Assembly: GCA_032718475.1 (NCBI GenBank)
Contig: JAUCBJ010001925.1
Coordinates: 1-36,931 of the forward strand
Source: Nemertoderma westbladi
Lineage: Eukaryota > Animalia > Xenacoelomorpha
Length of the DNA stretch: 36,931 nucleotides
Reading direction: 5' to 3'
Position numbers and translations under genes: made by a program. The notes below the pieces were generated by a model that did no database searches, was not told the origin of the DNA, and saw nothing but the letters and a program-made list of their open reading frames with translations. Below, in pieces: positions 7,105 to 36,203 of this stretch. Positions within the stretch are counted from its first letter, which is position 1; each line of letters opens with the position of its first letter.

Positions 7105-8290
7105 TGAAATTGAAATTGAATTTAATGACATGACATTATAGATAAACAAATAATAAACGGTTAACACGGATTAAACAAACGTGACATCGTCACTAAAAGT
7201 AAAATAAGCACCCAGCCATTTAACACCACTGGGGCTGCACACAGTGAACTGTACATTATATGTGCAATATGCAATGCACAAAAAAGTGTTTAAAATTTAA
7301 TTTAAAATAATTACGTACATAGTCATTATGGGTATATAATTAAAACCAAAAGTAAAATATTAAGTTAATGCTAGTTATTGCTAGGTATCTATGGAGTATT
7401 ATGAGTTCCATAGTGTATCAGATCAGCCTGGGACTAGGGAGAACCGGAGCAGTTGTGATTGGTGCAGGGGGAGGGCGGATTGTCTCCATTGTGGTCTTCC
7501 AGGATCCCTTGCACGTATGGAGCAGATCAGTCTCATCTAGGTTCTTTTTAAATACTTTGAGTGATGGTGACATTACAACTACATTGGGAAGAGAGTTCCA
7601 GGTGGGGATATGACGCACAGTGAAATGATGCTGGTGAATAGCTACATTTGAATGGGGGCGTTCTAATTTCCATGGGTGTCCTCTAGTTCTTGAATTAGAA
7701 GCAATGTGAAAGTAAACTCGATCTGATTGCCCACTTCGAATTATTTTATACATTTCAGTGATATCGATTTTGATCCGGCGTTCTTCTAGAGATTTGCATT
7801 TCAATTTAGTTAGTCTGCTGGATTAGCTTAAACCAGATAGACCGGGTAACCACCGCGTAAACTCTCTTTGAACCTGTTCTAACCTGTTTATATCTTTGTC
7901 GAGCATTGGAGACCAAATGGGGCTATTATATTCGAGAATTGGTCGAACAAAAGTGCAAAATAGATAGAATTGAAACTGGCTATTACGGTGGCCGAATGAA
8001 CGTCTAATTTGAGAGCTCGATTTTCTTGCCTTGGCACAGATGAATTCGACATGTTCACTAAAGAGTAAATCATTTGAAATGATAATTCCAAGGTCTTTGT
8101 TGCATTCATTAGTGTTCAAGAGAGTTCCATTCATATTATAAGTATGAGTAACTGAGGTAGAAGAATTTGGGGCCTTAAGTGAGACTAGACAGCACTTTTT
8201 AACATTAAACTCCATATTCCAATCAGAAGCCCAACTAAGGAGAGAATCGATGTCTGGATCGAATCGTGTCTGAATCATGTCTGAATCGAA
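7105..8290 (-). mobile_element. 5'-truncated CR1-type LINE
   Basis: WASDWNMEFNVKKC, KDLGII, FVRPILEYNSPIWSP, LEQVQREFTR, TRGHPWKL and WNSLP motifs, with a (TTTCAA)n-like tail at ~7105-7122. Confidence 0.88.
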
Positions 8291-8387
8291 CCTGGAACCA
8301 GTTGTCAGGTTATGCTACAGTGCAGCAGTGCTATGAGACAACAGGACAGATCGAATGGTTGCTGACTCAACCAAATCGAAGAATCGT

Positions 8388-9140
8388 AATATAATAATAA
8401 TAATAATAATAATAATGCACTCTTTTATTAATCATTAACATATAACAATTAATTAAAAGGGAGAACATCACCCAGGTTACAAGGACACTTACGGGCAACA
8501 ATTGCACTTAAAAATATCGTTAAATTAAAATACTAAAATACATGTTTCTTATATATTGTAAAAATTACAAATCCAAAAATCTATCAAAACTACAATAAGG
8601 TAAAAGATCTACTTTTTTTAACAAGTTCTTAAAAACATTAATATTAACTGCCATAACTACGTCTGACGGTAAATCGTTCCATACACTTACTACACGGTTT
8701 GAATAGGAATACTTAGTTATCTCTAATCTAGTAAAACGTTTATAAGAATGTCCTCGATTGCACCGCACCGTATTTGCAAAAGTAAAAAAAATTTCTTGCG
8801 GTAGATCAACAAGTTGATGTAGAATGTTGTAAGTCATTGTAAGATCAAAAATATGTCGTCGTACTTCTAAAGGCTGTAGTTCTAAGATTCTCAGCCTGTT
8901 TAGATAACTTGTACGGCCTAAGTTACAACGGGCAAAAAGTCTACGAGTAAAGTACCGTTGGAGACGCTCAATTAAATCAATTGTACCAAAGTCAAAGGCG
9001 GTGAGCTAACCGGAGTACAGTATTCTAGAATAGGTCGCACGTAGGACTTATAGGCAGTAATAATTGCGTTTAAATTACCAGTATGAAAACATCTGAAGAT
9101 CATATTAACTATTTTATACGCCTTCTTCACCTGCTCCCTT
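8388..9140 (-). mobile_element. 5'-truncated CR1-type LINE (second family)
   Basis: AYKSYVRPILEYCTP, NRGHSYK and SNRVVSVWNDLP motifs, with a (TTA)n tail at ~8388-8416. Confidence 0.85.
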
Positions 9141-9302
9141 AAGTTATTTCATATGTATTTCATATGGACATAACTGAAAAATTGAAAAATCCGGCAGCAG
9201 TAAGAAAATGTGTCGATCTACCATCATACCAAATTTCATAGCATCTTATTTAAATTTTAAATAAATTAGGGGGGGGGCTCCGACCGCATTAGGTCAATTG
9301 AT

Positions 9303-9896
9303 ACAACGAGTCAAAGGGAACAAAACGAGTCAAAGAGTACAATAGCAAAGGGTACAACGAGACAAAGGGTACAAACACGGCGGTCAAAGGGTACAAAACA
9401 TAGGACGTCAAAGGGTACAAACAAAACGAGTCAAAGTGTACAACACATCAAAGGGTACAACGAGACAAATGGTACAAACCAGGCGATCAAAAGGTACAAA
9501 ACATGACGTCAAAGGGTACAAACAAAGCGGTCAAAGGGTACAAAACATAGGTCGTCAAAGGGTACAAACAAAACGAGTCAAAGTGTACAACACATCAAAG
9601 GGTACAACGAGACAAATGGTACAAACCAGGCGATCAAAAGGTACAAAACAGGACGTCAAAGGGTACAAACAAAACGAGACAAAGTGTACAACATCAAAGG
9701 GAAAAAAACGAGTCAAAGGGTACAACATGAAAGGGTACAACGAGACAAAGGGTACAAACCAGGCGGTCAAAGGGTACAAAACATAGGACGTCAAAGGGTA
9801 CAAACAAAACGAGTCAAAGTGTACAACATCAAAGGGTATAACGAGACATAGGGTACAAACCAGGCGGTCAAAGGGTACAAAACAGAACGTCAAAGT
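9303..9896. repeat. Complex minisatellite built on CAAAGGGTACAA with a 147-bp higher-order duplication
   Basis: The core recurs every ~16-24 bp, and the block starting at 9421 recurs at 9568. Confidence 0.9.
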
Positions 9897-11429: not shown

Positions 11430-11594
11430 TTATGAAAGTTTGAGTTTATCAAATTTCCCCTGAACCCTAACAGAATATACCAGCAAGCGTTCTAGAATAA
11501 TGCAAACATCAGACTTATCCAATGGAGCAGCCATTGTGTCATGGGCATCGTTCGATGTTTCATAACTAGAAGTGGTCTCTGTCGCCGCAATTAA
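11430..11594 (-). CDS. Orphan helical protein, terminal coding exon 4: LIAATETT...DVCIILERLLVYSVRVQGKFDKLKLS*
   Basis: Strong acceptor ttttatttattatcttcag. Open in phase 0 for 54 codons to TAA at 11430-11432. Confidence 0.6.
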   Translation of the reverse strand, partial: LIAATETTSSYETSNDAHDTMAAPLDKSDVCIILERLLVYSVRVQGKFDKLKLS

Positions 11595-12048
11595 CTGAAG
11601 ATAATAAATAAAATAACATAAAATATCATCTGCTATACTGTATTAATATACTATTAAATATGGAAGATATTTAATTATTAAATCATTTAATGCAAACCTT
11701 AAGCAATTGTAACGGTTCCAATATCACAGTTATTACATATGTCACACACACTACAATCTACTGTATGAAACAGGAAACAGTGAGTAAAACTTACGAGCCG
11801 TAGAAAAGGTTCCGATATTTTGGAGAATTGGGGATATTTGGGGAGGAACAATTGGATACAGTATAAGGGGGGGGGGGGGGGGTGGAGTGGACGCAAATCC
11901 CATCTCGGCGAATTAATATATCGACTCTCTGCTCCTCGGAAAGGAGCAGGTTACAGAGGCAATTTATTCTAACCAAATCAATTAAATAAAGTCAATAGAA
12001 CAGGTTATACAGTTTTATATTTTACAGAAATCAGTTGTTATTAGCGAT

Positions 12049-15000
12049 GTGATTATGATTATGTCATCTGCTAATCTACATTTCCTGGCGGATACAGAAA
12101 CCTGGTTTGACAACACAATTTTAGGTGATGAAATTAATGTTAGTAATTTCGGCATTTACAGGAATGACAGGAATAGACATGGTGGGGGTGTTGCAATATA
12201 TTACAGATCGTCACTAGAATTTCCCAAGTCCGAAACAATTGTCAATGGAAAAATAGAAATACTGTTTGGAGAACTGCGGTTGCCAAATACTAAACCAATC
12301 TTGATAGGCGTTGGTTACCGACCGCAGTGGGTTTCTGGCTTCTTTGATGAACCTCAATCAGCATTAAAAGATATCCCAATCTATAATGAAATATATATCC
12401 TAGGTGACTTTAACTATGATACTTTATGCAAAGGCCTGCCTCTATCTGCTAGAGGTCCAGAAGTAGAAACAAGATTAAAGGTGTCTTCTTATTGTGATGC
12501 AACAGGGTATGTCCAACTAATCACAGAACCAACCAGAGTAACATCGACAACAGCCACAACTCTCGATTTAATATTTGTTTCCAATAAGGATTTTGTCAAT
12601 GGAAGTGGTATTGTTGCTAAGTGTGCTAAGTTGCTAAGTATTGGTCTAAGTGACCATTATCTAACTTACGTGACTAGAAAGAGATGCAAATTGAAGATTC
12701 AGGGTGAAAAGACTAAACCAAAGCATTGTAGGAAGTATGCAAATTATTCCAAACGGGTTTTGTTAACAAGTCTGGAAGGTAACCAGAATATCAAAGATAT
12801 TTTAAATGAAGAAGATCTACTGTAGATATAGCTACCACTAAACTTTCTGAGGAGTTGATTTCTACCTTGGACACTGTCGCCCCATTGACACTTATTCGAG
12901 TGAGCCCAATTACTGAACCTTGGGTTAATAAAGAAGTGAGGCAAGCTATAACGGCAAAAAACAATGCGATGAGAAAATTCCATGCGTTACGGACTCGCGA
13001 AAATGAATTATCCTTTAAAAAACTAAGAAATATTGCCACCAAGGTAATTAGACGATCTAAAACCAACTTTATTAAAGACAATCTAACGATGAATAAAGAC
13101 AAACCAAAGGAACTATGGAAGACTCTAAAACGAATAGGTGCGCCAACAAAACGTAGTATTCCAGTCTCCTCTTCTATTGGCTTAACTGTGAATGGATCAA
13201 CTAGCAATGACAATTCTGAAATTGCTGAAGAGTTTAATAAATTCTTTACATCAATTGCAAAGTCTTTGGTGAGTGAATTACCAACTCCAACAGGGAAATA
13301 CGGAGAGGAGTATGTAAGAGAGTTCTACGCGAAGAAAGGAGTGGAACTCAACTCATTTTCTTTAACCCCAACTGACACTGAAGAGGTAGATACAATCCTA
13401 AAAGACCTGCATGTAGATAAAAGTCCAGGTCCAGATGGTATACCGCCAAGATTATTCCGTGATGGTTCAACGGTGCTTGCCAGAATTATTTGTCATATTG
13501 TAAACCTATCAATAAAGACAAGCAAATTTCCACAATCCCTGAAGACAGCCAAGGTAGCCCCTGCATATAAAAAAGGACCACGGTTAATTACTGAGAATTA
13601 TAGACCAATAGCTCTGCTTGCTATACTAGGGAAGATCATAGAGAGGGTCGTTCTAATACGTATACCCCGTTATATCATCAGGAAACGTCTACTCCATAAG
13701 TTCCAATCAGGTTTCAGACTTGGATTTTCTACTGAATCAGCACTAATGTTAGTGGATGAGGCAGTTCGAGATGCAATAGAAAATGGTAAAGTCACAGGAA
13801 TGGTGTTACTGGATCTTAGGAAAGCTTTCGACACCATAAATCACAGTATCCTACTGATGAAATTAAAGTATATTGGTTTTGACAAACCTGCAGTAGAATG
13901 GATTGCTTCATACCTAGCTAACAGAAAGCAATATGTATCAATAAATGGTACTCGTTCCTCAACAAGACATCTAGACGATAATGGCTTGCCACAAGGAGGC
14001 ATACTACCCCCTCCCCTCTTCCTCCTATATACTAATGACTTTGAAGAAGTTCCAACCATAACAACAATCCCACCAACGATTCCACCAACCCACCCTGGCA
14101 CTGTGGCATTGAATGAAGATGTATTACCACCAATGTTCGCGGATGATACTAGTCTATTGAACTCTCAGATCCACTCAACAGATATTTCGAGAACACTAAC
14201 AGCAACCATGGCTAGAGTATCTATGTGGTTGACTGACAACAGACTCAGTTTAAATCTGAATAAAACAGATACCATACTTTTTGGTAGTCACCAACGCCTA
14301 TTATCGGAGCCAGGACTTACAAATATCATGTAACGGTTTAGTCATACCGCCCAAAGATTGTGCCATTTATCTGGGTTGTGAGCTGGATGCGACTCTATCT
14401 GGTAAAGCCATGGCATCGAAAGTTATCAAGAAAGGTAACAGTCGCCTGCAGTTCTTACACAGGAATAGTGCAGTTCTTAGCGGAGGGTTACGAAGACTGC
14501 TTTGTAATGTTTTAATCCAGCATCACATCGACTATGCAGGTCAATGTTGGTTCTTTACAACTCACAAATCACTGCGATTAAAACTGGAATCCCTCCTGCG
14601 GAAATGCATTCGTTTTTGCCTTTTCCTTGAGAAACGCACGCACATTAGTATAGAGCACTTCATTCGGTTGAATTGGCTACCCTTAAAGGAGCGAACCCAA
14701 GTTGCTACTCTATCCCATATGTTCAGAATAGCCAATGGACTAGCCCCAGAATACTTATCAGATATGGTTAAATTCTCTGTTAGAGAGAATCGTCGTGGAC
14801 CAAATCAATACGCTGTTATTCCAAGTCGCAAAACTGAATACGGCCGACAAGCTTTCTCATTTCGAGGCCACCGGCTTTGGAATGATCTCCCTAATGAAAT
14901 AACTCGTATTCCCACGTTAGAAGGCTTTAAACATGCGTTGAAGGACCACTACTTTGAAAAACTCATAGCTGATGATCAGGCAATCTTCTTTTAGCAAGCG

Positions 15001-15510
15001 ACCCAACCTTTTATATTGAAATAACTTTTTAAAATGTTTGATATCTTATATTTTATCCTTTAGGGCAATTCCACGATAAAAGATGATGATTTTAAAGCTT
15101 TTTAAATTTTATTTAAAACTCTTTCGAAATGACTATCAGCCGATACCTATTTTAAAAGATTTAGAATTTTATCACTAATATTTTTAAATATGATACGATG
15201 TTCCGCAATATTATTTTTATCTCATATAGCAATACCTTATTATGGCCTACATTTGCAATATTTTTTCTCGGGGACCCCCATGAAAACGAGTTAAATAACT
15301 CATGAGGCTATCCCCTGCACTATAAATTTACGATGAATTTTTTATCTCATATATACAGTAGATAGTAACACATTCTCTGCTTGTTCTTTGACAGAACTAT
15401 TTAAATGTTATTTGATACTAAATGATATTTGTTACCTACAAAATATTTTTATGATGGTTTTTTAACTTTTTATGCATGGCAATTTTTTTTAAAAAGATGT
15501 AATAAATGTA
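12049..15510 (+). mobile_element. L2/Crack-like LINE ORF2 (APE endonuclease + RT), frameshifted, with 3'UTR
   Basis: APE motifs TETW, GGGVAIY, ILGDFN, TTLDLIF, SDH. RT motifs KSPGPDGI, NYRPIALL, QSGFR, LDLRKAFDTINH, GLPQG, MFADD. C-terminal WNDLP. Three frame-shifted ORFs and a 3'UTR stem GGACCCCCATG...CATGAGGCTATCC. Confidence 0.9.
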
Positions 15511-15535
15511 AAATTAATTGCCTTATGTGTTGTAT

Positions 15536-16680
15536 GTGGGGCGAGCCACGAAGTTAGCGGAGCCTTAGCGAATTGACACTGTTAGGGGGTGGGTCAATTT
15601 ATGCAAATAGTTGTCGTCGTCGTCGTCGTCGTTGTCGTCGTCGTCGTCGTTACGATTTTGACATGCTAATAACTTTGTTGGATTTAAAGCTGCCAAGTTG
15701 AAAATTTGTAGGTATCAATATGAGCAAAAGTTGAGATTTTTGAGAGACTTTCAGACACCATCAGTGCAATGGTCTCCCGCTAGAGGGCCACATGTCTAAA
15801 CATTAAATGGCCACCCATTTCTTTGCTTTTAATCCGTTTAAGCTGAAACTTGGGAAGTATGTACTAGACCATTAGCTGTAAATTTCAAAGGAGGCTAATC
15901 TGTCTGCAGTTCTCCAGTCTGCCGCTAGAGGGCGAAATGTCCCTAATGTGAAATTATTCTTCCATTTAGTTGTTTATGATCTGATTACGCTGAAACTTGT
16001 CATATATGTACTAGATGACATCCTGAGTCTTTGTGTGGATTGTAATCGGTCCGAAGTTTTCCAGTCTGCCGGTAGAGGGCCACATGTCTAAACATTAAAT
16101 GTCCTTCCCATTTTTTGCTTTTAATCCGTTTAAGATGAAACGTGGCAGATATGTACTAAACCATTAGCTATGACTTTCAAATGAGGCGAATCCGTTTACA
16201 GTTCTCCAGTCTGCCGTTAGAAGGCAAAATGTCCCGAAAGTGAAATTAATCTCCCATTTAGTTATTTATGATCTGATCAAGCTGAAACTTGTCATATATG
16301 TACTAGAAGACATCCTAAGTCTTTGTGTGGACAGTAATCGGTCCGGAGTTTTCGAGTCTGCCGCTAGAGGGCGAAATGTAGGAAAGTGATAACCTTCGCG
16401 AATTCCTTGATCTTAATCTATTTAAGCTGAATTTTGGAATATACAGTACCGGTATGTACTAGACCACATGCCTCGTCTTTGTGAGGAAGGTGATCGATCC
16501 GTAGTTCTTTAATATGCCGCTAGAGGGCTAAATGTATGAAAGTGAAAACCTTCCAACATTTCGTTATTTATGATCCGTCAATCGGAAACTTGGTAGATAT
16601 GTAATAGACCATAGGCTGTGGCTTTGTAGGGAAACTAATCCTTCCTTCTTCAGTTACCCAGTCTCCCGCTAGAGGGTTAA
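15536..16680 (+). mobile_element. Helentron/HINE-like non-autonomous element with (GTC)n microsatellite and ~146-bp internal tandem array
   Basis: The 5' motif TGTGG[G/A]GCGAGCCA[C/A]GAA is shared with 22129 and 25948. (GTC)n lies at ~15611-15650. Seven units with CCGCTAGAGGGC-like cores at 15777, 15922, 16069, 16214, 16361, 16517 and 16666. Confidence 0.6.
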
Positions 16681-16719
16681 CGTTTTCCGGGAAATGTATT
16701 GAATCTGGGATTAACTCAC

Positions 16720-16953
16720 TTCTTGAAGCTGTGACTTTCTGTATTTTTCCAGTACAGTTTCCAGAAACAGTTTTATTTTTCCGTCTACAACTTCGATAGA
16801 CGCCACAAGATGCTCCAATTGTTCTTCAGTAACGCCATACTGTAATAGCTGCTCTCTCTGAGCTGTTGAGATATCCCGAACAATCTTCTCCAACACCGAA
16901 TTGTATTTATTGTAATCCGAGAGCAATTGCTGCCAAAACGAGGGATCTTCCAG
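16720..16953 (-). CDS. Orphan helical protein, coding exon 3: LEDPSFWQQLLSDY...EKYRKSQLQE
   Basis: Acceptor ttattattatttag, donor GAA|GTGAGT, 234 bp, phase 0-0. Encodes amphipathic helical sequence unlike a TE protein. Confidence 0.7.
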
Positions 16954-17292
16954 CTAAATAATAATAATTATTGTTAATTAGCCCATAATCAATGAAATTA
17001 ATAATATTATAAGTTGCCATGGTTTCACCATGACCAATCCTACATAAGAATACGACCATCAGAGCTCATCTACATTCTAACCACCAATAATTAAGTCGGT
17101 AAAGTTTTTTTATTATTTAATTTTCACCTAGAAGTATGTGATAATCTGTAATATCTTTGTGATAATCTAGCCTAAAGTACTGTAGGTTACGGTTTCAACA
17201 TAGTTAATCAATAAAAAGTTAATTAATTCAAGAAATATTTCTGAAGAACAATAAAGTGGAACAAGTGGAAGATCAAGTTTTCGAAACAATGA

Positions 17293-17433
17293 TTACTACT
17301 ACTACTATCGGCATGCTGCATTGCAGTGCATTATATAAAAATTACATTAAGAACGATGTGCCGACTTGTCGACAAAAATGTGCCGCCACAACTAGTCCTC
17401 ACGGCGAAAGCAATGTCCTGCAAAGCAGAGGCG
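17293..17433 (-). mobile_element. RTE family A 3' fragment with internal deletion
   Basis: (TAG)n tail plus two non-adjacent blocks matching 26910-27000 and 27145-27183. Confidence 0.8.
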
Positions 17434-18255
17434 GGAGGAGGCATTTTGCTGCACACGCTAACTGTATATCGAAATCTTATATTTTTATCAAAGAATCATT
17501 CAATTTCTGTGCGTATTATATTTATGCCTAACTCATATTGTATGCCACCGTGAACCTTGTTTATATGTTGCCTAGCAGCAGTTATGGTAGTGCTGAACTC
17601 TCATTGGTAACTACCGGAGTAGGTATTCTTGCGTCCTATTGGCTGTTCTATTTTTGCAGTATTGCTTGCTTATATAGTCGATGTTCATCCCATTATTTCC
17701 AGGCGTAACCTAACAACATATTAGCCTGTTGCGAGTCATTGTAACTACAGGACTCGTAATATTTCACCTTGCTGTATTACATTATCAAATTGTTGCATAT
17801 ATTATTGCATTATTATTATTTACTATTATTGGTTTACTATTGTTGATGAATATACAAGACCAGAGATCAGACCAACTCGATTTCCACACGGTTAGTGCTG
17901 ACTGCGCCCTGTCTGTAATAGATTCGGTTCATTCGGAGTGTGTGCGTCCATAGTACTACAATATTATTCCCCAACTGGTAACTAACATCTATTGACACTA
18001 TGTATGCAGCACGAGTGAACTGTGCGCTTACCACGCACTAAGTCCAACATCCTGTCCTACCTGTAATATATGTAAGCCACACGTACATTTATTCGCCAAT
18101 AACACAATATAACGGAACGGTTTACACGTAACTGTCACTTTACTCCCTTGAAGCAGTTTATAAGCGCCGAAACTATATACTTACCGTGATTGATTGTATA
18201 TTCAGGTCAGATATATATATTAGATAATATATATATACACACATACTTTCGTAAG

Positions 18256-18797
18256 TGTTCCTGCTGTGCGGCAGGTACCCCAAGGCACTTGATAACACCC
18301 ATAAGAGTTACAGACAGACTCGTAACGGCATCTGAAGGGTAGCCTCCCGTTAAAAGCCTTGACAAGGCAGCTAATCTGTTCGTAATCGCACAGGTAACCT
18401 AGGCTAACCAGGTAACAACTGACTCGCTGCCTTAGGAACTTGATTGCGGGGACGCAGTTATGGTTTTCCGATTGACCCAAAGGACGACGGCAACCTTCCG
18501 TTTCCAGGAATATGCTTTCCTTATAAAATACTCAGCAGCTCAACGCGTTGCCCTTCCAGCCCAATGTCCGGTAGTTCCCCATTGGTCGGCGCGTGGAATG
18601 CATCTGTGTTACTATGACGATACGCAGATCCCCACTGCACTGTCAGGCCTTCGGATGTCGGTACATTCCCTCCAGTTGAGGAACCGAAGTTCTACTTCCT
18701 TTATGAATTTAACTATTTCTGGGTTAATAAATACATTTATTTTCGTTGTACAAGGAATAGGTTTCCGTTCACCCTGTAGTCTTATAAAGCGATAACA
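18256..18797 (+). mobile_element. Possible solo LTR
   Basis: TG...CA ends (TGTTC...TAACA), TATAAAA at ~18522 and AATAAA at ~18726. No TSD was found, so the 5' end is uncertain. Confidence 0.35.
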
Positions 18798-19094
18798 TAG
18801 AAGACTTGAACGAAATATTTATTAACACCGAATAGTCCTATATTTATTATTATTACAGTATTAACTAACCAGGTTTGTATTTTCCGTTTCTATTCTGATG
18901 GGTAAATGTCGTCTAATGCGCGGAATGTTGGACGTTGAATTGAATCTTGCGTTACACTGGAACTGAAATAGTGAAATAATGAAAATAATATTTATATTAT
19001 AAACTAACAACTTAGTAAATAGGCGACTATACAGTAGCATTCAAGAAAGTAATTTATTGTAAAATATTTCGATAATACAGTGAGTGTCTACACT

Positions 19095-19205
19095 CTCTGG
19101 ATCTGCATCCTTGAAAAGCCGACGAACGCATGTAATTGAATGGCCTCCATATTTGTTGAAGCAATAAGGCTGGCTGCCACAGGACGAGCGTTTGTATAGG
19201 TTGAT
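19095..19205 (-). mobile_element. Old RTE C-terminal fragment
   Basis: DQPIQTLVLWQP followed, after a frameshift, by KYGGHSITCVRRLFKDA. Similar to EDQPVHNLVLWQP...KHGGQPTTFLRRILKDT of RTE-A. Confidence 0.65.
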
Positions 19206-19431
19206 CCTAAATTAAGAACAAGTTTACAACAAATCTGAAATTTTCTTTATGCGAGGTGATACTCCATCTTAGAAGTGGGTCATAAATACGTCACCCATTG
19301 GAAATAATAGGTACAGTATGTGTTCTTGTTCTAAACCCTATGCAGCATGCAGATGTTTGTTTAATCTATTATATTGTTGAGACCTCTGCGGCACTAATAC
19401 GTTTAGAGTGGTTTGGTTATGGGGGTTGTTT

Positions 19432-19656
19432 GCAATCTTCACCCGCGAGCAACCTTCGCCCAATAAGATATGTGTTACTAACCACTTTAGTTACAAATTG
19501 AGGGAAAGGAGCAGGTTACAGAGACGGCTTTTTCTAACCAAAACAATAAACGATGTTGTTATTGATTGAGTGAAATGGGCAGGTTACAGAGACGGGTTTT
19601 TCTAACCAAAACAATAATTGTTTATTGGACGAAGGTTGCTCCCGTGCGAAGATTGC
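19432..19656. mobile_element. Small fold-back element (35-bp arms) with duplicated central core motif
   Basis: 19432-19466 is an imperfect inverted copy of 19622-19656. Two AGGTTACAGA-N10-TCTAACCAAAACAATAA copies lie between the arms. Confidence 0.7.
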
Positions 19657-19834
19657 CGCCGGTTGATAGTTTCTCATTTTAAGGGCGAAGATTTCTCTGG
19701 GCGAAGATTGGGCGCGGGTGAAGTGTTCTGCGTACCGCTATGGGTGGTTAGAGCATCAGCCATAGAAACCTAAGGTGGCGAGTTCCAGCCTACAGAGAAT
19801 TATAGTTTTTTAGTTATTGAATGGGATAATCTTT

Positions 19835-20206
19835 TAGGCTCGTTAAGCCAAGGAATACCTGTTCATCACCTTGGGTGATCTTCCACAGTAAACCCTTCCA
19901 CTCTGTTTCCTAAAGGAATGCCTGTTCACCACCATGGGTGATCTTCCACAGTAAACCCTTCCACTCTGTTTCCTAAAGGAATGCCTGTTCACCACCATGG
20001 GTGATCTTCCACAGTAAACCCTTCCACTCTGTTTCCCAAGTTGCCTTGGTTCCCATTTATCGACCACTGAAGGATGAAAGCCGGGGTTGGGCTAGGCTGC
20101 AGCATTTAAAGCACTGTGCCCAAACAGTGCTGCCCCATCTAGGGATCGAACCCGGCCAACCCGGCGAACTAGACCAATCTGCATCCTGCATTAACTATAA
20201 CTATCC
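19835..20206 (-). mobile_element. tRNA-derived SINE with Deu/Nin-like core and 3x63-bp tandem amplification
   Basis: Box B GGTTCGATCCC (~20142-20152). Core GCTTTCATCCTTCAGTGGTCGATAAATGGG (20052-20081) resembles the Deu/Nin domain as recalled. 63-bp units start at 19851, 19914 and 19977. Confidence 0.65.
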
Positions 20207-21550
20207 TGTTATAAACTATAGGCTTGTACACATTGAAATAACAACCCCGGAATCAAGCTTTTAACTTAACTTATCACTTAGGTTGTTATAGTTGTTATAT
20301 TTGTTATTTAGGCTTTTATCGCTGACTTTTTATTAAGCATTTATCATCCTTGTAACCGGTTCATAAATAAACTCTGGTCATTTCGCTGAAAAGTACTAGT
20401 TTTCATACAATGATGTAAGTAGTTAAAAACCCCTGGTACTACTTTTTATATCTATGTTATAATTTTGAACTGGTGGTTGATTTATAAACTGGGGTTTTCA
20501 AAAATTTATCCTTTTCAATTTCCGATAAAAAAAACTGGGAGTTGTACTAAACAGAATATAAAACTCCCGGGTTTATCAAATTAATGATAAATATTACTGG
20601 TCACTTTAGATTCCGCTTCTTGTACTGTTTGCAAGAGTTTGTGCGTCTGCATTATGTCATCTATAATTACTGTTTATGCGAACCTACAGACATAAAGACA
20701 CATAAAGTCACCGCAGCCATGTCGATTGGTACTTTAGTGGCTCTAAATGGTGGGATCAACTGCGCAAATTGAAAAAAACGAAACTAAATTTAATTTGAAA
20801 CATGTCCGGTCTTTTCTAACCAAAACAATAAAATACTTTATTTTATTTGCGACCAATTTACGTTGGAACCACTTTATTCAATCGTGGTCAATGTGCGGCG
20901 CCTCTATCGGGACTTCTGCTACAAAAGGAAGTCAAATTCCCCAGTGGATGCCTTTGGGACCAGAGGTCGGTTTTATGGTAACTTTCCAATAAGTTTCATT
21001 TAAACCTTTTTTATGTAGAAAAATTCTGTTCGGTAAACCACTGAGTCCGGACCTCCCCAATAGTTACTAATAAATCTCCAGTCTATTTACCACAATTAAA
21101 TATTCGTGGGAGTTTGTTAGAATTATAGGAAAGATCGCAATAAGCAGAGATGTCGGACTGCATAAATAACCAAATAAATGAGTTCAAATGAGGTTACATA
21201 ATGTCGTCTAAATTCATTTAAATACATTTAAAATTTAATTGTGAAACATCATGATTTTAATGTCAAAATACCATTAATATTAGTTTCTAAACAGTAATTT
21301 TGTCGTTAGTAATTAAATATCGATACATACCACACTTATTATTTTACTACGGCAAATTCTTGGCACCCAATGATGTATTTATTTATACTATCTGCGTTGG
21401 CCAAAAGTAAATAACAATTATAGTGGTGTGGACTTTAATTTAATGCGTTTACAAAATACAAAATATCAACGTAGACTGATCGGGTTTCCAATTTTCCGAT
21501 GTAATTATTAATGATTAATGTTAATGAATAACGTAAAGGTAAAGGGTCCC

Positions 21551-22115
21551 AAGCTGATGTTTAGGGCTGCCCTTAGTAGTCTTGTGTAACAAACATCAAT
21601 TCGGTGTTCTAAGTGATTTCGTCAGTGTCCCGGTCTCACCCCGTATAAAAGTACACTTTCCACTGTGGCTCGAAAGAACTTAGTCTTCAGGTGCCTGGAG
21701 AGATCTGATTCCCAGATGGTATCCATTTTTGATAGAGCTACCCATGCCTTTGCCTTCCTAACTTCTATGTCCTTTTTGCTACTCTCTATCCATGATCCTA
21801 GGTACTGGAATTCGTCAACCTTCCTTAGTTAATTATTATCAATTGTTGTCAAGTCCATTAAAAGTCATGAATTCGGACTTGGTAGCATTTATATGCAATC
21901 CAACCTCCTTAGCAGCCCACTCCACTTTATTCAGTAGAAGCTGCGCATCTGCTAGCGTTTAGAGACCAGGGCGATGTCATCCGCAAAGTCGGTGTCTGTG
22001 ACTGTAGTTTCCGGATATCTGGTGCTTCTATGATCATGTAATGTAAACCAAGGATCTCAACAGTTGTGGCCGCCCTCAGAATTCAGTTTCACCATCTGGT
22101 GAGAGTACCTGAGCG
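21551..22115 (-). mobile_element. RTE family B decayed fragment
   Basis: Clear nucleotide similarity to ~31205-31855. Confidence 0.85.
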
Positions 22116-22128
22116 CTGAGCTTCTGAA

Positions 22129-22330
22129 TGTGGAGCGAGCCACGAAAGTAAGCGAGCTTAGCATCCAGGTACCACTATAACTCAATCGGTGTGTCTGTCG
22201 TTCTGTTGTGTTCAATTTTAAAGGTTAATAACTCAGCCAAATCTCGATGAAATCTATCCAAACTTTGTAGACATGTAGTCGGGCAAAAGTTTAGAAATTT
22301 TCCAAGTTGAATTTGGGTGGGGTCTTCGTG
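22129..22330 (+). mobile_element. Helentron/HINE-like element 5' part
   Basis: Aligns with 25948-26165. Confidence 0.6.
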
Positions 22331-22839
22331 TACCACCTGTCTAACTGTCATGCAATTATAATAAATTAATCTATCCAAAATTATTACCTGGTCGCTAGGA
22401 GACTGCAGGATATATACCGTACTGCAGTACTGCTATTGCTGTACGTGGTAGGCCTAGCTTTCAAGGCTGGTTGTCAGGGTGCAGGGTGGTACTGCAGTAT
22501 TGGTACGTGCGGTGGTAGGGCTGTAGGGTAGACCTGCAATCGCCAGATGTCTGAATTGCGATGTTGCGACTATTCAGCCAGTAGCTATATCATGTACGGT
22601 GCTGTAATATTATTAAACAGATGTTTAGCAGTACCGGTACTGCTGTACTGGTGCAGTGGTACCGTAACCGCAACCGTACCTGTACTGCTGTAGGTTACAG
22701 GTACTGTCTTCAGGTCGTTCGCGCCACCCACCCATCGGCTCGGCAGCAGCAACCATGGAAGTTTTGATATTATGCGGACTTACAGACTTAACAGGTTAAG
22801 GTTGTAAGGACTACAAACCTAGACACACCTAACTCCAGA

Positions 22840-23514
22840 TGACTTTTCTGAATCTGGACTACTTAACTTAGATAGTAGAGTTAAGCAGCTACGCCTTAAC
22901 CATGTGCATAAAGTGTATAATGGTAAATGTCCTAATTACCTAAAACAAAAATTCAACAGAGTACGCGATACACACTCTTACAGTACCAGAGCTAGTGCTT
23001 CAAACTTCTACCTCCCGAATTGTAAATCCTTTGAGTCTGATACTTTCTTTTTTAACGGCATTAAAAATTGGAACGCTCTGCCTAATGAAATTAAAAACCT
23101 AGATAATCAACATTCTTTTAAATCTGCAGTTAAATCTCACCTCCGTGTGCAATGTAAAAATAGGTACAATAGTCCTACAGTAAGTTATTAGTTTATTAAT
23201 TATTTACTATTTATACTGTAATTACGTTTTATAATAAATTGTTCTGTACATTACATCTTTATCGTTGAGTCGGGCATTGTCACGCTCTCGGTAAAGTTGT
23301 ACATTACATAGTGTAATTACGTTTTATATGGGCTTTAGGTTAGCGTAGTGTAATATTGTATTTGTAACCAAGTAACATAAAGGACCCCCTTGGAAATAAG
23401 CTGCAAAGCTTTAGGGGTAATCCTATTTGTTATGTTGGACAATACCTTTATACCGGTACATTGTTTGGTGTATTTGTTATTGTTTTTACATAATGTATAA
23501 ATAAATCTATCTAT
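22840..23514 (+). mobile_element. L2/Crack-like LINE 3' end
   Basis: CPNYL...HSYSTR...TFFFNGIKNWNALP motifs, 3'UTR stem GGACCCCCTTGGAAATAAG...GGGGTAATCC, and AATAAA followed by a (TCTA)n tail. Confidence 0.85.
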
Positions 23515-24141
23515 GACTTGTGTAAGTGGCTTGTGAAACGGACTGACAGATTGTCAGGTTGTACCAGCTGACCTTTATTCCATGGTTCCGGTACCCACTA
23601 TACACTAACTGCACTACCCCTATACACACACAGCAACGTGTTGGAATTGTACTCAAACAACTCGCCATCAAGGCCACCCCCTCTGTCTGTCGCAGTGTCG
23701 TTGGCGACCTGGACTTTTATTGTATCGCTACTGCGCTAGCGCTACAGTTAAACTGGACTAACCGAGGAGCTACAGTACAGTAAGACTGGAGAATGCATGG
23801 AACTTTTTGAGTAGTTTGAATGTGGACTTCTATGACATCGATGCCAAGCTGCCAATGCGAAAGTTTTTTTAAAGTAACGGTAACTCACTGCCATCACCCG
23901 GTGTCCAGAGTCCAGCCACGTTTGCCTTGACATGTTGCCCTTGACACGGCTCCGAGCTTCCGGCTCGGGTGCAACAGATGCCCTGCCACACATTAACTCA
24001 TGTTTATGTTCGCCCCAAACTGCCAAATCTCTGCGGCGTATTCTGTCGAAGGGCTTCGAACCGTACCCGTAACGTTAGGCGGATGCCGGTAAAGAATTAA
24101 GACTTAAGTGACGTGAGATCGGATGGATCATTCTATGGTTA

Positions 24142-24293
24142 CTACTAGGATCGGCATGCTGCATTGCAGCTGCATTTTTAAGAATGCTGTGCCGGCTTGT
24201 CAACAAAATTGCGCCGCCACAACTCCCTATCACCCATGACATTTGCTAGATCATCCGCATCTTTAAGGCCAGTGTCCTTTAAGATGCGTCTCA
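24142..24293 (-). mobile_element. Short 5'-truncated RTE family A insertion
   Basis: Near-identical to 26918-27072, with 12-bp TSD ATTCTATGGTTA (24130-24141 / 24294-24305). Confidence 0.9.
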
Positions 24294-25180
24294 ATTCTAT
24301 GGTTAAGTTTAGTTAGTGTACCAGCCAGCCAGCCAGTTTGTCACAGTGTCGCCCACGTGGTAATAAAAACTTTGGTAAATATTGAATGATATAATAGGAA
24401 TAGGGACAGATGGGGAGGGGGTGGGGGGGCTTTCGATGCAATAAAAATTCATCCCTCTCCAGGTGAAAATCAAAGCCAAACAGCTGATTACTAATTTGTT
24501 ATTTGTTTAGTGGCGGCCCACACCCTAATTAAGATTTGATCGATGTAATGTCATTGTATTGTTTTTTTTTGTTATAGTATATTAGGTCGTTAATAAATTA
24601 GAATATTTATTTAATTATTCCATTGTTGAATAAATATATTAGTTGGATAATAACTATATACGTCATTGTTCATAAAATAGAACTTTATTTATAGGGCCTA
24701 GCGTTACGGCACGGGTGATTTTGAATAAAATGAAATTCTGTATTAACCTCGCTACGCTCGGTAAATAAAATATCTCAAGTCTAGTGAAAATAATGTTCTA
24801 CATTATTTACCATGCAATAAATAATTTAAAGTGCAAATGAACAATGGCGAATCTAATTTTATTTATTTGTGGGTAATTATTTGTAATTATGCACTTAAAC
24901 TTTCTAGAACAACCTAATAATGACGCGGTGACATATTGGATATACTGGAAATAGATAGTATAAATGTATGGCGTAGGGACATACTGAGAAATAATGTCGC
25001 ACTCCGATATAAAGTTGGAAAATATGTCGCCCTGGCGATTTGATAGTACAAAATTAATTCCGTACAAATAAATAAAAATGGATATGAATTTCATCAATAT
25101 TCCTAGACATCACTATTAAAGTGATTAATTAATTAAGTTAAGCGTTCGGAACCCCATGCTCCATGCTGAGTGAGAGGATA

Positions 25181-25300
25181 GCCCATGACTTTCTTGAGAA
25201 GTCTCTTACTAAGGAACACCGGTCTTGAAGATGCGGATGATCTCGTGGAAGTCATGGAGTTGTGGCCGCGCAATTTTGTCGATAAGCCGGCATAGCATTT
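25181..25300 (+). mobile_element. RTE family A decayed fragment
   Basis: Similar to 34043-34168. Confidence 0.7.
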
Positions 25301-25374
25301 CAATGTACAATTGTGGATTGCTTATAAAGGCCCTCGTGCTGCGCGAAGGTCCCCAACGTGTCACAATGTAACAA

Positions 25375-25603
25375 TCCACTACCAGCGAGAATTAGTTCTG
25401 GTATGCCATTAGGATTTCCAGCACTGTAGGCCTACCTGTAGGCTCTATGTATGGAGTCGAATTCTTTCTTGAAGTCCACAAATGTCAGGACTGCGCGGGG
25501 AAATGCTTTTACTTAATTCCTTCAATCAGTCTCCGTAGCGCAAGTATCTGAGCTATTGTTGATTTGGTCGAAATCAATTTTGACTCTTACTCAGCAGTTT
25601 CTC
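25375..25603 (-). mobile_element. RTE family B decayed RT fragment
   Basis: Similar to ~31880-32100. Confidence 0.75.
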
Positions 25604-25752
25604 AAAAGTGATTCTATTTATTTTTAATAATTACAGCAAACTCAACGTTATTAATATATTTATTTCCTAACCTTATGTATTGCTTCCTCCACGCTTTTTT
25701 GTAAAGACAGTTGTTGCATCATTATTTCAACGAAGGACGAGTAGTTAATTAC

Positions 25753-25838
25753 TCTAAGTGATTGGAGTTCCCCTGTACGAGGAGCTGCACTGGTCACGGC
25801 CTGTTGGGTCGCGGCATTTCTTTCAACACCTAATTTAT
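25753..25838 (-). CDS. Orphan helical protein, coding exon 2: (Y)KLGVERNAATQQAVTSAAPRTGELQSLR
   Basis: Strong acceptor ttttctttcttag. 86 bp, open in phase 1 to phase 0, donor AGA|GTAATT. GC-richer than its flanks and phase-compatible with both neighbouring exons. Confidence 0.6.
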
Positions 25839-25947
25839 CTAAGAAAGAAAATATAATTTGAATTTAATCAGAATTTAAGACATTACTTTATTACGCACGT
25901 TATTTTCTAACCAAAACAATAAACTGATGTGAAAAGAACATGTTCTG

Positions 25948-26622
25948 TGGGGCGAGCCAAGAAAGTGTGCGAGCTTCGCATACGGCTACCAATAACTCAT
26001 TCGGTGTGTCTGTTGATGGTTGATCTGTTGTGTCCAATAATTTAAAAGTTAATAACTCAGCCAAATGTTAATTAAATCTAACCAAACCTGGTACACATGT
26101 TGTTTGGAAAAACTTTAAAAATTTTCAATAAGATTTTTAAAAATTATCCAAGTTGAATTTGCGTGTGGCCTTTGACAAGCTAAGATAAAAGCAGTTAATT
26201 AAGTTGATTAAGGTAAAAAATAGCATTTTTCTGCCGTCCCTTTAATGGAAATTAATTATTTTCTAGTATTTGATTTAAATAATTATACTTAAAAATTATA
26301 CAGCTGCAATCCGCATACCCCATTCCATTATACTGTAGTTTTAATTAGTTCAAGTGATTTACTTTAAGAAAAAATATGTTTTTAATTGATATAAACGTAA
26401 TTAAGTTATCAAAATGCAACCGTCTCTCCACACCCTATACTTCCAGCTCCACACTCCTGCAGGGCTAGCGTGCTTGCTATTGCCTAGCTGGGAAAACTAG
26501 TCAAATCTACTTCACCACTGCTAGAGCAAAGGGTAATTACATCTATATGAGCCTCAACCCCTAAAATATGTAATTCATTTGTATTTCATAACTGAGCCTC
26601 GTGCTGCGCGAAGGCTCCACGA
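25948..26622 (+). mobile_element. Helentron/HINE-like non-autonomous element
   Basis: 5' GTGG[G/A]GC and 3' GCTCCAC subterminal inverted motif, with 3' structure GCCTCGTGCTGCGCGAAGGC (a similar 3' end lies at ~25330-25356). It appears to span the outer boundary of the left inverted arm. Confidence 0.55.
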
Positions 26623-26907
26623 ACGTGTTATTTGTGTCGAATCTCCCTCATTAATTTAATTTTTTTGGAATAAGTTTCAAAATCCCCCTTTTTCTTAAAA
26701 ACATATATTCTTGAGGAAAACGGAAGGAAGATAAACTCGTATGTGTATTTTTGATGGTTAACCACATTTATCGACAATGGCTTTAGTGATAATGGTTTAA
26801 TTTTAGTTCCGAAAACACAATGAATGGCAATGTTTAAATTTGTAAAATCTAATCGTTTAAAAGTAACGGCTGCGCCCAAGAATAAATATTACCCTCAAAA
26901 CTCGGGC

Positions 26908-27767
26908 GTACTACTACTACTACTAGGATCGGCATGCTACATTGCAGCTGCATTTTTAAGAATGCTGTGCCGGCTTATCGACAAAATTGCACCGCCACAA
27001 CTCCCTATCACCCATGACATTTGCTAGATCATCCGCATCTTCCAGGCCAGTGTCCTTTAAGATGCGTCTCAAGAAAGTCGTGGGCTGTCCACCATGCTTA
27101 TACACTCCATGAGGCTGCCAAAGTACAAGATTATGCACTGGCTGGTCCTCACGGCGAAAGCAATGTCCTGCAAAGCGGAGGCGATTTTGTTCTAGTGTCA
27201 AGCTTGGGGGAACCAATGAGACACCTCCAATGTCTTATAGTGTCTGGTTGGAGATGTGTGCATTGTACTTGACACAATGAACCCGGCGTAGCATTCTTGT
27301 GAATGTGCCATCCAGAGATTTGGTGTCCTCAGCAGTTAGAGCCCAGCACGGACTCCCATAGAGGAGTACTGGAACTACTGCTGCTCTAAATAATCGGACC
27401 TTAAGTCTTCCTCTACTTCCAAATCCTGGAAAGCCTATTTAAGGCTGACCATGCCTTTCCCTTACGTATTCGAAGGTCCTCGCCTGACTTCCGGATCCAT
27501 GATCCCAGGTAACAGAAGTCATCCACATGCTCAAGCATACCATCTTTTGAGCTTGTGCTCATCCGATCAGAGACTTGCTGAGGACTTTCAAAGTTAACTG
27601 TGAAAATTTTGGTTTTTCTGGAGTTAATAAAAAGACCAACACTAGAAGCATCATGTTCTAATGAGCTGAGGAACCGTTGGGCTCCCTCTAGTGATTCTGA
27701 GAGTACTCCTAAGTCAACAGCAAAGTCTAGATCAGTTAGGTACTTGCCAGGAATAAATACCACATCA
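26908..27767 (-). mobile_element. 5'-truncated RTE family A LINE with 35-bp TSD
   Basis: LDFAVDL, VDDFCYLGSWI and RLRFAGHCFR motifs, (TAG)n tail, and TSD at 26873-26907 = 27768-27802. Confidence 0.9.
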
Positions 27768-27898
27768 CGCCCAAGAATAAATATTACCCTCAAAACTCGG
27801 GCTTTATTTTAGTTGTACTAACGAGTATTGACTCTAATGTTGTTGAAAACAGATACTTGTTCTAAAATATAATTATAATTATACAAAAAGACACTTAC

Positions 27899-27971
27899 AC
27901 ATAATCACCGGCACGCTTATCAATGCTAAAACAATAAAAGCTATCAAAATGATCCATTTTGCTCCAATCAT
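27899..27971 (-). CDS. Orphan secreted/type II helical protein (candidate four-helix cytokine), coding exon 1: MIGAKWIILIAFIVLALISVPVIM
   Basis: Acceptor attatacag lies 6 nt upstream of the ATG (context aaaATGA). Hydrophobic signal or anchor peptide, consensus donor T|GTAAGT, phase 1. Confidence 0.65.
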
Positions 27972-28179
27972 TTTGTTCTGTATAATTTTAGTATTATCGT
28001 TAATTTTAATTAAATTAGAAAAATCCATTTGATAGTGTGCTCTCACAATCGTTTTGTATTTTATAGCGAACCCATTGTTTTCGGAACTAAAACTATTTTG
28101 GTTCACTTTCCCACCTAACCGTTTAAAAATCTACGAGATTAAGTATCCTTAATCAGGTAGTGAACTATCCGATACCTAA

Positions 28180-28470
28180 TAGCGTACCTCAATGTGTTAG
28201 ATTAACGATACCAAAGTACCACCCAGTTGGCCAATCAGAAATGCTTCCTGAAGTAAGCCCAATCTGCTACCGCAAACCAGAATCAATCCAATGTTAGTAA
28301 TAGTGTGAGCAATCTCAAAGCTGATTGGTTAGATATGGTGATTCCCGGTTTGAAATCCATAGCATGGAACTAATGTAAATACGTCATCAGCTTTTATTCT
28401 CATTTCCTCTTTCCTGTACTTACAAGCCAATGCAAAACAATATTATCTGTTATGCCAATTCTAGGAGTAA
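28180..28470 (-). promoter_or_regulatory. Probable promoter and 5'UTR exon of the orphan gene (mirrored at ~32660-32950)
   Basis: About six CCAAT/ATTGG boxes within ~230 bp and a TGACGT (CRE-like) site, followed by a possible 5'UTR donor GAG|GTACGC upstream of the ATG exon. Confidence 0.4.
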
Positions 28471-28729
28471 AGGGATAATATTAATGGGAAGTGGAGTTTA
28501 CTGAGGTGGTGTAACTGTAACATTTATACAAAATATGTGTGAAGAAACCGGGGTATTATTTATGATGTATTACAACAGTTCTTCTATTGATTCCGCTAAG
28601 CTAAATTTATATTTAAAATTCTTACGTTAATGTGGTTATAGTACGTGATGTGGTAAATAGTAGGGTAACTCGTAAGTTAGATTGTAGTGAGGCTATAATT
28701 AATACATTAAGGTATGTATGGTATCTTAG

Positions 28730-30782: not shown

Positions 30783-32460
30783 TACTACTACTACTAGGTC
30801 GAGTGAACTCGGACAGTGGAAATGAGATCCTTCTAGGCTTCCCGATTCTCCATAGTTGTCGCAATTTCGTTTCTCCTGTAATGTATAGAAGGAGTGACAG
30901 GAAGAGAAGGAGTAGCAAAACCTCCACCAGTAGGCCTATCTACCATGGCCTACTTTATACACAATATACTAATATACCATCTCCCAAGTTCAGTATCCCT
31001 TTCAAGTTGAAGCTTTCTATATATGTTATGGCTTGTCGTCCACGACTACGCTTTCCATGAGTTGGTTGCCAAAAAAGTAGATCTGGTATGACCTCGTCTT
31101 TACTTCGCCAGCAGTGCCCACTGAATCTTAATCTGCGTTCACAGAGGGTGGTTGATACAGGTGGTATTGTACCATAAAGCTCGGCTTTTGTCATGTGTTG
31201 TCTCCAGCTGATGTTTAGGGCTGCCCTTAGTAGTCTTGTGTAGCAACCATCAATTCGTTGTTCAAGTGATTTCGTCAGTGTCCAGGTCTCACCCCCGTAT
31301 AAAAATACACTTTCCACTGTGGTTCGAAAGAACTTAGTCTTCAGGTGCCTGGAGAGATCTGATTACCAGATGGTATCCATTTTTGATAGAGCTACCCAAG
31401 CCTTTGCTTTCCTAACTTCTATGTCCTTTTTGCTACTCTCTATCCATGATCCTAGGTACTGGAAGTCGTCGACCTTCCTTAGTTGATTATTGTCAATGGT
31501 TGTCAAGTTTCCATCAACATTAAAGGTCATGAATTCTGTCTTGGTAGCATTTATATGCAATCCAACCTCCTTAGCAGCCCTCTCCACATTATTTAGTAGA
31601 CGCTGTGCATCTGCTAGGGTATTAGAGAGCAGGGCGGATGTCATCCGCAAAGTCGGTGTCTGAGACTGTAGTTGCCGGATATCTACTACTTCTGCGTTCT
31701 TGAAGTGTGAATCCCAGATCTTCACCCGTTGTGGCTGTCCTCATTGCGTAATCCAGCACAATTACAAATAGTATTGGTGCTAATGTGTCACCTTGCAGTA
31801 CCCCAGCCAGGATTGAGAAAAACTCAGTTTCACCATCTGGTGAGAGTACCTGCGCTTCTGTGTCACAATATAACAATCCAATGCCAGCAACAATTACTTC
31901 TGGTATTCCATAAGCTTTTAGGATTTCAAGCATTTTGCCTCTATGGATGGAGTCGAATGCCTTCTTGAAGTCCACAAAAGTCATGACTGTGGGGAGAGTC
32001 TTCGACTTAATTCCTTCAATCAGTCTCCGTAGTGCAAGTATCTTAGCTATTGTTGATCTACTTGGTCGAAATCCGTTTTGGCTCTTACGCAGTAGTTTCT
32101 CTATGTGAGGCCTAATTCTATATAGAATCATTTTATTGTATATTTTGGCAGCTACCACAAGCAGACAGATCCCACGATAGTTTGTTGGTATGCCGAGGTC
32201 TCCTTTCTTGGGGAGAGGCTTTAGTTGACCTTTAGTCCAAATTGGTGGAGGCTTTTCCCCTTTTAACATCCGGTTGCAAACATTCAATAATGGTCTGTTT
32301 AGCACTCCTGTTTTCCATACCTCCGCTGAGATTTCATCTAATCCACTCGCTTTATTATTGGACATGCTTTTAATGCTTCTTTGGAGTTCGGCAGGTGTGA
32401 AGTCCCCTGTTTCTATAGGTAGTGTCTTGTCATATATTTTCCTTGTAGGGCTGACCTCGA
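30783..32460 (-). mobile_element. RTE family B LINE, 5'-truncated and frameshifted RT
   Basis: KASGLDEI, NYRGICLL, QNGFR, FVDFKKAFDSIHR, GVLQGDTLAP, DFADD, FQYLGSWI and RRLRFSGHCWR motifs, with a (TAG)n tail. Confidence 0.93.
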
Positions 32461-33156
32461 TGTTTTAACTTTGTAGGCTATCTTAAGATCTTCTCTCTTA
32501 CAAGTAACCTCAGGCTGTCAGGGTTTTGCCATGGCACATACTGTTTTCGTTTGGGCTTCTGGGGGATATCCATACCCCGGTTTCTTCACACATATTTTGT
32601 ATAAATGTTACAGTTACACCACCTCAGTAAACTCCACTTCCCATTAATATTATCCCTTTACTCCTAGAATTGGCATAACAGATAATATTGTTTTGCATTG
32701 GCTTGTAAGTACAGGAAAGAGGAAATGAGAATAAAAGCTGATGACGTATTTACATTAGTTCCATGCTATGGATTTCAAACCGGGAATCACCATATCTAAC
32801 CAATCAGCTTTGAGATTGCTCACACTATTACTAACATTGGATTGATTCTGGTTTGCGGTAGCAGATTGGGCTTACTTCAGGAAGCATTTCTGATTGGCCA
32901 ACTGGGTGGTACTTTGGTATCGTTAATCTAACACATTGAGGTACGCTATTAGGTATCGGATAGTTCACTACCTGATTAAGGATACTTAATCTCGTAGATT
33001 TTTAAACGGTTAGGTGGGAAAGTGAACCAAAATAGTTTTAGTTCCGAAAACAATGGGTTCGCTATAAAATACAAAACGATTGTGAGAGCACACTATCAAA
33101 TGGATTTTTCTAATTTAATTAAAATTAACGATAATACTAAAATTATACAGAACAAA

Positions 33157-33229
33157 ATGATTGGAGCAAAATGGATCATTTTGATAGCTTTTATTGTTTT
33201 AGCATTGATAAGCGTGCCGGTGATTATGT
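33157..33229 (+). pseudogene. Duplicated copy of orphan gene coding exon 1 in the right arm of the inverted repeat
   Basis: Exact mirror of 27899-27971. Exons 2-4 are outside the duplicated arm. Confidence 0.6.
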
Positions 33230-36140: not shown

Positions 36141-36203
36141 ATGTCTGTCGATCGGCCAAAGACGATAAGAAGCGGCTCTATTTTGGCACTTAGAAGGATA
36201 AAT

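Follow-up and report, generated by a model that had tools for sequence, protein, structure and literature searches.

A 36,931-nucleotide (nt) stretch of the genome of Nemertoderma westbladi (contig JAUCBJ010001925.1, positions 1 to 36,931; hereafter the window) carries on its minus strand a gene that is very likely real and whose predicted product we consider, at a probability of roughly 0.65, to be a long-chain class I helical cytokine. The original prediction for this locus had placed four minus-strand exons at 27971-27899 (73 nt), 25838-25753 (86 nt), 16953-16720 (234 nt) and 11594-11430 (165 nt), and their GT-AG boundaries and common reading frame, as well as the intron phases of 1, 0, 0 and the translation of 185 amino acids (aa), were all reproduced here. 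This four-exon model is probably incomplete: exon 2 appears to be longer and a further exon to have been missed, an omission for which the original prediction had allowed. The revised gene, a form that we judge likely to be correct, consists of five exons with GT-AG boundaries at predicted junctions, intron phases of 1, 0, 0, 0 that are compatible throughout, no internal stops, and a product of 243 aa. The exons, the region upstream of them and an inverted duplicate of the beginning of the gene are as follows.

27972-28556, minus strand: promoter-like region with six CCAAT boxes and a TATA-like site at 28065
27899-27971, minus strand: exon 1, 73 nt, phase 1, with the start codon, a 20-residue hydrophobic segment and a GTAAGT donor
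25672-25838, minus strand: exon 2, extended, 167 nt, phase 1 to 0, encoding a stalk and then predicted helix A
18870-18962, minus strand: exon 3, newly found, 93 nt, phase 0-0, encoding a 31-aa candidate A-B loop
16720-16953, minus strand: exon 4 (exon 3 of the original prediction), 234 nt, phase 0-0, encoding predicted helices B and C
11430-11594, minus strand: exon 5 (exon 4 of the original prediction), 165 nt including the stop codon, encoding a serine/threonine (S/T)-rich C-D loop, Cys220 and putative helix D
32572-34740, plus strand: inverted duplicate of 26389-28556, 2.17 kilobases (kb), with one indel in 2169 nt, 4 kb apart from its counterpart

Splice sites were scored with a generic matrix whose approximate frequencies come from general knowledge and which is not trained on Nemertoderma westbladi. 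On this scale the donor first proposed for exon 2, at 25753, is weak, scoring -1.1 and ranking 169th among the 935 GT sites of the span, whereas the same frame stays open for another 81 nt to a phase-0 donor at 25672 that scores 3.5 and ranks 14th; the resulting exon, 25838-25672, is the highest-scoring of six internal-exon candidates in the span. Within the long second intron the best candidate exon is 18962-18870, which is bounded by a T-rich TTTCAG acceptor and a GTTAGT donor. Both exons stand out in guanine-plus-cytosine (GC) content, exon 2 at 0.43 against flanks of 0.23 and 0.24 and exon 3 at 0.41 against 0.24 and 0.25, and all five exons fall between 0.34 and 0.43, compared with 0.17-0.29 in nine of their ten flanks. 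When a splice score of at least 6.8 was combined with a GC excess over the flanks of at least 0.15, thresholds that were chosen after exon 3 had been seen, nothing on the plus strand qualified, and the minus strand yielded three loci: one exon of the neighbouring gene ITFG1, exon 2 in its extended form, and the 93-nt exon 3. Shuffling the intron produced a phase 0-0 exon of 60-150 nt that satisfied both filters in 3 and 4 of 500 trials, as compared to 29 and 24 of 500 (18 of 300 in another run) by splice score alone. Exons 2 to 5 are each present in one copy in the window, and exon 1 in two. The acceptor of exon 4 at 16953 is weak on the generic matrix (0.5, rank 94 of 986), and a higher-scoring alternative (4.4) lies in frame at 16929; its use would drop eight residues. 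A 48-nt phase 0-0 candidate exon also lies between exons 2 and 3 at 20759-20712 on the minus strand (score 5.6, GC excess 0.16) and, if used, would make the A-B loop 16 residues longer.

The ATG at 27971 has an A at -3, and the 585 nt upstream of it hold six CCAAT boxes, a number reached by 9 of 1000 shuffles and, elsewhere in the window, by none of 59 tiles; STAT, NF-kB, IRF and CRE motifs upstream of exon 1 are not above chance. Exon 1, together with its duplicate, is the most hydrophobic among 146 initial-exon candidates: residues 6-25 are hydrophobic, with a maximum 19-residue mean hydropathy of 2.95, the stretch that the original prediction read as an N-terminal signal or anchor. This segment could be either a cleaved signal peptide or an uncleaved type II anchor. 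Simple -3/-1 cleavage sites are found after residue 16 or 19, and other positions are poor. An upstream in-frame ATG at 28028 (minus strand), 37 nt past the TATA-like site, would add 19 N-terminal residues, and a start there would favour a type II membrane anchor. The inverted duplicate, which the original prediction does not mention, carries a second promoter and a second exon 1 (33157-33229), after which no copy of exon 2 follows within the window. The inner end of its right arm abuts a retroelement reading frame that is interrupted mid-course, and the junction sequences of the arms gave no sign as to which copy is native; the duplicate is either a very recent inversion-duplication or a product of assembly.

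Structural predictions were obtained by applying AlphaFold2, in single-sequence mode, to exons 2 and 4, one at a time. Following the hydrophobic segment is a 20-residue stalk rich in A, T, Q, S and P, and beyond it the 55-aa piece encoded by exon 2 is predicted to form a helix at its positions 21-54, that is, a 34-residue helix A at residues 46-79 of the product. Most of this helix lies past the original end of exon 2: the predicted local distance difference test (pLDDT) reaches 92, 95 and 87 in blocks of the added part, in contrast to 57, 60 and 79 in the part included before (residues 26-53). The 31 loop-like aa encoded by exon 3 include Cys83, the sequon N88 and, at 95-98, a furin-like RIRR. 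Exon 4 is modelled as a B-C hairpin with helices at 115-140 (26 residues) and 154-188 (35 residues) and a seven-residue helix between them (local positions 4-29, 43-77 and 32-38, respectively), the best model having a mean pLDDT of 87.9 and the five models ranging from 52 to 88. Exon 5 holds the long S/T-rich loop described in the original prediction, then Cys220, and then a putative helix D to which the residue pattern and the feature matches described below point. The product has exactly two cysteines, Cys83 and Cys220, 137 residues apart, a pair that exists because exon 3 was added, and its second N-glycosylation sequon, N56, lies in exon 2. As a cytokine, the 185-aa product of the original prediction holds up only with the extension of exon 2 and the addition of exon 3, since by itself it has room for no more than three long helices, an exon-2 part of mostly low-confidence pLDDT, and one unpaired cysteine; the broader idea of a helical cytokine is favoured by the five-exon layout and by cytokine clusters matched, at scores below 0.9, by exon 5.

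The connections between the predicted helices measure about 35 aa (A-B), 13 aa (B-C) and about 27 aa (C-D), and this long-short-long order is consistent with up-up-down-down packing. In this model each exon would encode one structural unit, namely the leader, helix A, the A-B loop, helices B and C, and the C-D loop with helix D. The same correspondence between exons and units is present in IL-6, G-CSF and growth hormone (GH), the genes of which have intron phases of 1-0-0-0. Long connecting loops are described as a requirement of up-up-down-down bundles (PMC7378365).

No sequence homologue was found in any database search, the searches of large protein sets covering exons 4 and 5. This absence carries little weight, because even a 245-aa exon of ITFG1 reaches only 40% identity to its best database relative (10 matches, 430-2000 aa). 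Feature-based comparison with the ESM Atlas, carried out for exon 5 against named clusters only (a filter that lies outside the calibration of the tool), returned 30 matches, seven of which were listed. Among these seven are a somatotropin cluster at 0.83 (185 of 256 features shared), which is the top cytokine cluster, a cardiotrophin-2-like cluster at 0.79, a CNTF/Hormone_1 cluster at 0.79, and an IL-11 cluster at 0.75; the Pfam families of the cytokine matches are PF00489, PF07400, PF01110, PF06875 and PF00103 (Hormone_1). Scores under 0.9 are to be read as leads only, a third of shuffled proteins reach 0.8 with their first match, and the recognition value of exon 5, 2613, is reached by 9 in 100 shuffled proteins. 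The result is given weight here because four separate family sets sharing one cytokine fold co-occur among the seven matches listed.

Comparison with known families suggests a gene with the general plan of the class I ligands that fits none of them in detail. The original prediction had likened the last helix to helix D of CNTF. IL-6 has five exons and three introns within the mature domain (PMC13081863), and the candidate is predicted to have the same numbers. More broadly, IL-6, IL-11, CNTF and cardiotrophin-2 resemble the candidate in length, in having five exons, and in the predicted order of helix, long loop, helix, helix, long loop, helix, as far as these families are described in the sources consulted (PMC13081863; PMC7378365), and the 243-aa product, like the 185-aa product of the four-exon form, falls within the filter of 150-280 aa that, like the five-exon layout, served to identify lamprey IL-6 (PMC13081863). 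The clusters of IL-11, CNTF and cardiotrophin-2 also share features with the last exon at 0.75-0.79. In contrast, sequence similarity to IL-6, IL-11, CNTF or cardiotrophin-2 is not detectable, the candidate has two cysteines where IL-6 has four, and it departs from the gp130-family cytokines in its 20-residue stalk, its long exon for helices B and C (78 aa) and the RIRR within its A-B loop. IL-6 proper is characterized by linkage to TOMM7 and by conserved cysteines, which number four or, in hagfish and some fish, two (PMC13081863); here there are two cysteines, and the window yielded no host gene other than ITFG1. The cytokines that bind LIFR, including LIF, OSM and CT-1 as well as CNTF and CLCF1, are described as carrying an FXXK site-III motif where helix D begins (PMC9601804), and this motif is absent before the putative helix D of the candidate, where exon 5 has no phenylalanine ahead of Cys220 and the stretch ends in PLDK. 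The candidate is not an orthologue of IL-6 or LIF.

Among the class I families, GH and prolactin (PRL; PF00103, Hormone_1) provide the best cytokine match in the Atlas. In human GH and in LIF, a long-range disulfide connects a loop to helix D. These bonds enclose 112 and 126 residues, respectively (PMC4063663), and the bond proposed for the candidate would similarly span 137. Moreover, GH and PRL genes have five to six exons (PMC9546618), comparable to the five predicted here. Vertebrate GH and PRL have four conserved cysteines forming two disulfides, whereas the candidate has one cysteine pair and is missing the second, C-terminal pair; it also has no sequence match to GH or PRL, and its host is not a chordate. 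The GH-like proteins of lancelets likewise lack the vertebrate cysteine pattern, according to the description available (PMC9546618). Outside the vertebrates, Drosophila Unpaired 1-3, the ligands of Domeless, resemble the candidate in its proposed role as a secreted invertebrate ligand of a gp130-like receptor (PMC7378365; PMC13203501), and no similarity to Unpaired, which was not itself directly compared, appeared in any search. Class II cytokines, including IFN-lambda, IL-10 and the interferons (IFNs) of lampreys and lancelets, share phase-0 introns between helices with the candidate (PMC2654155; 10.64898/2026.05.30.728932), and IFNL2/3 share the phase-1 first intron (PMC2654155), while lancelet and lamprey IFNs are reported to have phases of 0-0-0-0 (10.64898/2026.05.30.728932). 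Class II molecules, which have at least five helices and a core of 0-0-0-0 phases, differ from the candidate, for which four long helices are predicted and for which all cytokine matches in the Atlas are class I.

Taken together, these data suggest a sequence of events in which the five exons would be spliced into one message, the protein would enter the secretory path and become glycosylated, and the chain would fold as a long-chain, up-up-down-down four-helix bundle in which a Cys83-Cys220 bond may join the A-B loop to helix D. The product is likely to be secreted or tethered to the membrane, and could be set free either through signal peptidase or by being shed from its 20-residue stalk. 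By analogy with known class I systems, it is likely a ligand of the JAK/STAT pathway, which would dimerise a receptor of the gp130/Domeless type and thereby activate JAK/STAT signalling.

Several observations weigh against a cytokine. Amphipathicity is significant in exon 4, whose helical moment was reached by 6 of 500 shuffles, but only marginal for the putative helix D in exon 5 (55 of 500), and helix A in exon 2 is no more amphipathic than shuffled sequence (406 of 500). Single-sequence AlphaFold readily draws helices on isolated pieces. No Pfam cytokine family matches exons 2 to 5, even at E<=1 or 10, a weak test on pieces of 31-78 aa; every Atlas score for exon 5 is under 0.9, the top three matches listed (0.88, 0.87 and 0.86) are unrelated clusters, and exon 4 gave a low recognition value (1603) and no match. 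The hydrophobic segment is long and poor in cleavage sites other than those after residue 16 or 19, intron 1 lies after this segment and not inside it as in IL-6, and cleavage at RIRR would cut the A-B loop. In addition, the GC content at third codon positions (GC3) of the four-exon frame is 0.39, compared with 0.63 and 0.71 in ITFG1 exons, values far over the 39% background. Lastly, false positives are described as numerous in screens that combine gene structure with predicted helices, and a first intron of phase 1 ahead of phase-0 introns is found in IFN-lambda as well (PMC2654155).

Some of these points would also fit a genuine gene of five exons whose product is helical and lineage-specific, secreted or anchored as a type II membrane protein, but no class I cytokine: a surface protein built as a helical bundle or coiled coil, for instance, or a proprotein from which cleavage at RIRR frees a three-helix C-terminal part. 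The 20-residue hydrophobic segment with its poor cleavage sites, the upstream ATG at 28028, the RIRR site, the weak amphipathicity of helix A, the lack of a cytokine Pfam match and the unrelated top Atlas clusters all agree with such a protein; against it stand the four separate cytokine family sets among the seven listed matches, the long-short-long loops with exon borders at helix ends, and the placement of the only two cysteines at the starts of the A-B loop and helix D; on balance we regard it as unlikely. Greater doubt attaches to the notion that the chain is partly a product of chance, dead, or an assembly mosaic, exon 1 in particular perhaps deriving from another gene and having reached this place through the inversion or duplication. 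The position of exon 1 within a near-identical inverted duplicate whose native copy the junctions do not indicate, the repeat-filled introns of 1.9-6.7 kb, the low GC3 and the lack of a homologue speak for it; against these are five stop-free, phase-compatible exons, four of them single-copy GC islands, and the CCAAT cluster upstream, and the lack of a homologue says little next to a neighbour whose own best match is so distant. We therefore hold a mosaic to be improbable.

Still less credible is a predominance of the original 185-aa form with its four exons, which would give a protein of three helices and a single free cysteine. All of its junctions are GT-AG and in frame and it requires no additional exon, but it would use a donor far inferior in rank to the one downstream, forgo an extension that stays open and folds as a confident helix, and skip a 93-nt exon of a quality that few shuffled introns attain. 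A long-chain class I helical cytokine encoded by five exons is the reading preferred here. A stronger version of it, in which a xenacoelomorph worm retains a true homologue of the IL-6/GH cytokines with the vertebrate five-exon layout, perhaps, given its long, seemingly uncleaved N-terminal segment and its stalk, as a type II membrane-tethered protein that is shed, is possible, although we lean against it.

In the portions of the literature consulted, a 2026 survey restricts IL-6 to jawed vertebrates and reports no IL-6-like ligand in most invertebrates, with JAK, STAT and the receptors being older (PMC13203501); as other invertebrate ligands it names Unpaired and an IL-like domain carried by a lectin. 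Structure and exon layout have extended the record of the vertebrate-type ligand back to lamprey and hagfish (PMC13081863), and a GH-like protein is described from the lancelet (PMC9546618). Xenacoelomorphs, a proposed sister group of all other bilaterians, are described as having largely lost Toll and complement signalling (PMC12849515), and a term search of the main text of that source returned no mention of JAK. No description of such a xenacoelomorph gene was found in the literature searched, and none of the background passages of PMC4929537, PMC3296744, PMC11193209 and PMC7535936 concerns this ligand. A five-exon, four-helix ligand in Nemertoderma westbladi, if true, would offer a definite gene for expression and for trials on its receptor; were it a true homologue, the ligand family and its gene structure would go back to the last ancestor shared by all living bilaterians.

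The surrounding window has a GC content of 39% and abundant retroelement fragments, and its sole recognisable host gene is ITFG1, which lies downstream of the candidate gene on the same strand and extends past the left end of the window. The following features were recognised.

6886-6062, 4276-3584 and about 276-137, minus strand: ITFG1 (T-cell immunomodulatory protein, FG-GAP repeats), few large exons
11986-12825, plus strand: endonuclease frame of a long interspersed nuclear element (LINE), in a frame different from the other parts of the element
12810-14333, plus strand: reverse transcriptase frame of the same LINE, the tail of which reaches 14994

Three plus-strand open frames lie within an ITFG1 intron (1428-1838, 2019-2246 and 2410-2880), and two of them were scanned and gave no Pfam match; all three resemble remnants of a DNA transposon. 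The near-complete LINE (11986-14994, plus strand) occupies the last intron of the candidate gene, antisense to it. At least two more LINE families are present as fragments at 30955-32571, 21546-22078, 25358-25603, 26956-27808, 35362-35598, 36194-36421 and 7418-9005; Pfam RVT_1 was confirmed for the LINE frame at 31625-32464 only, the other fragments being recognised from self-matches and translations. Self-comparison also revealed tandem or minisatellite-like arrays at 9302-9895, 15772-16676 and 19850-20039, the second of which has a unit near 145 nt and an end some 45 nt beyond the exon-4 donor.

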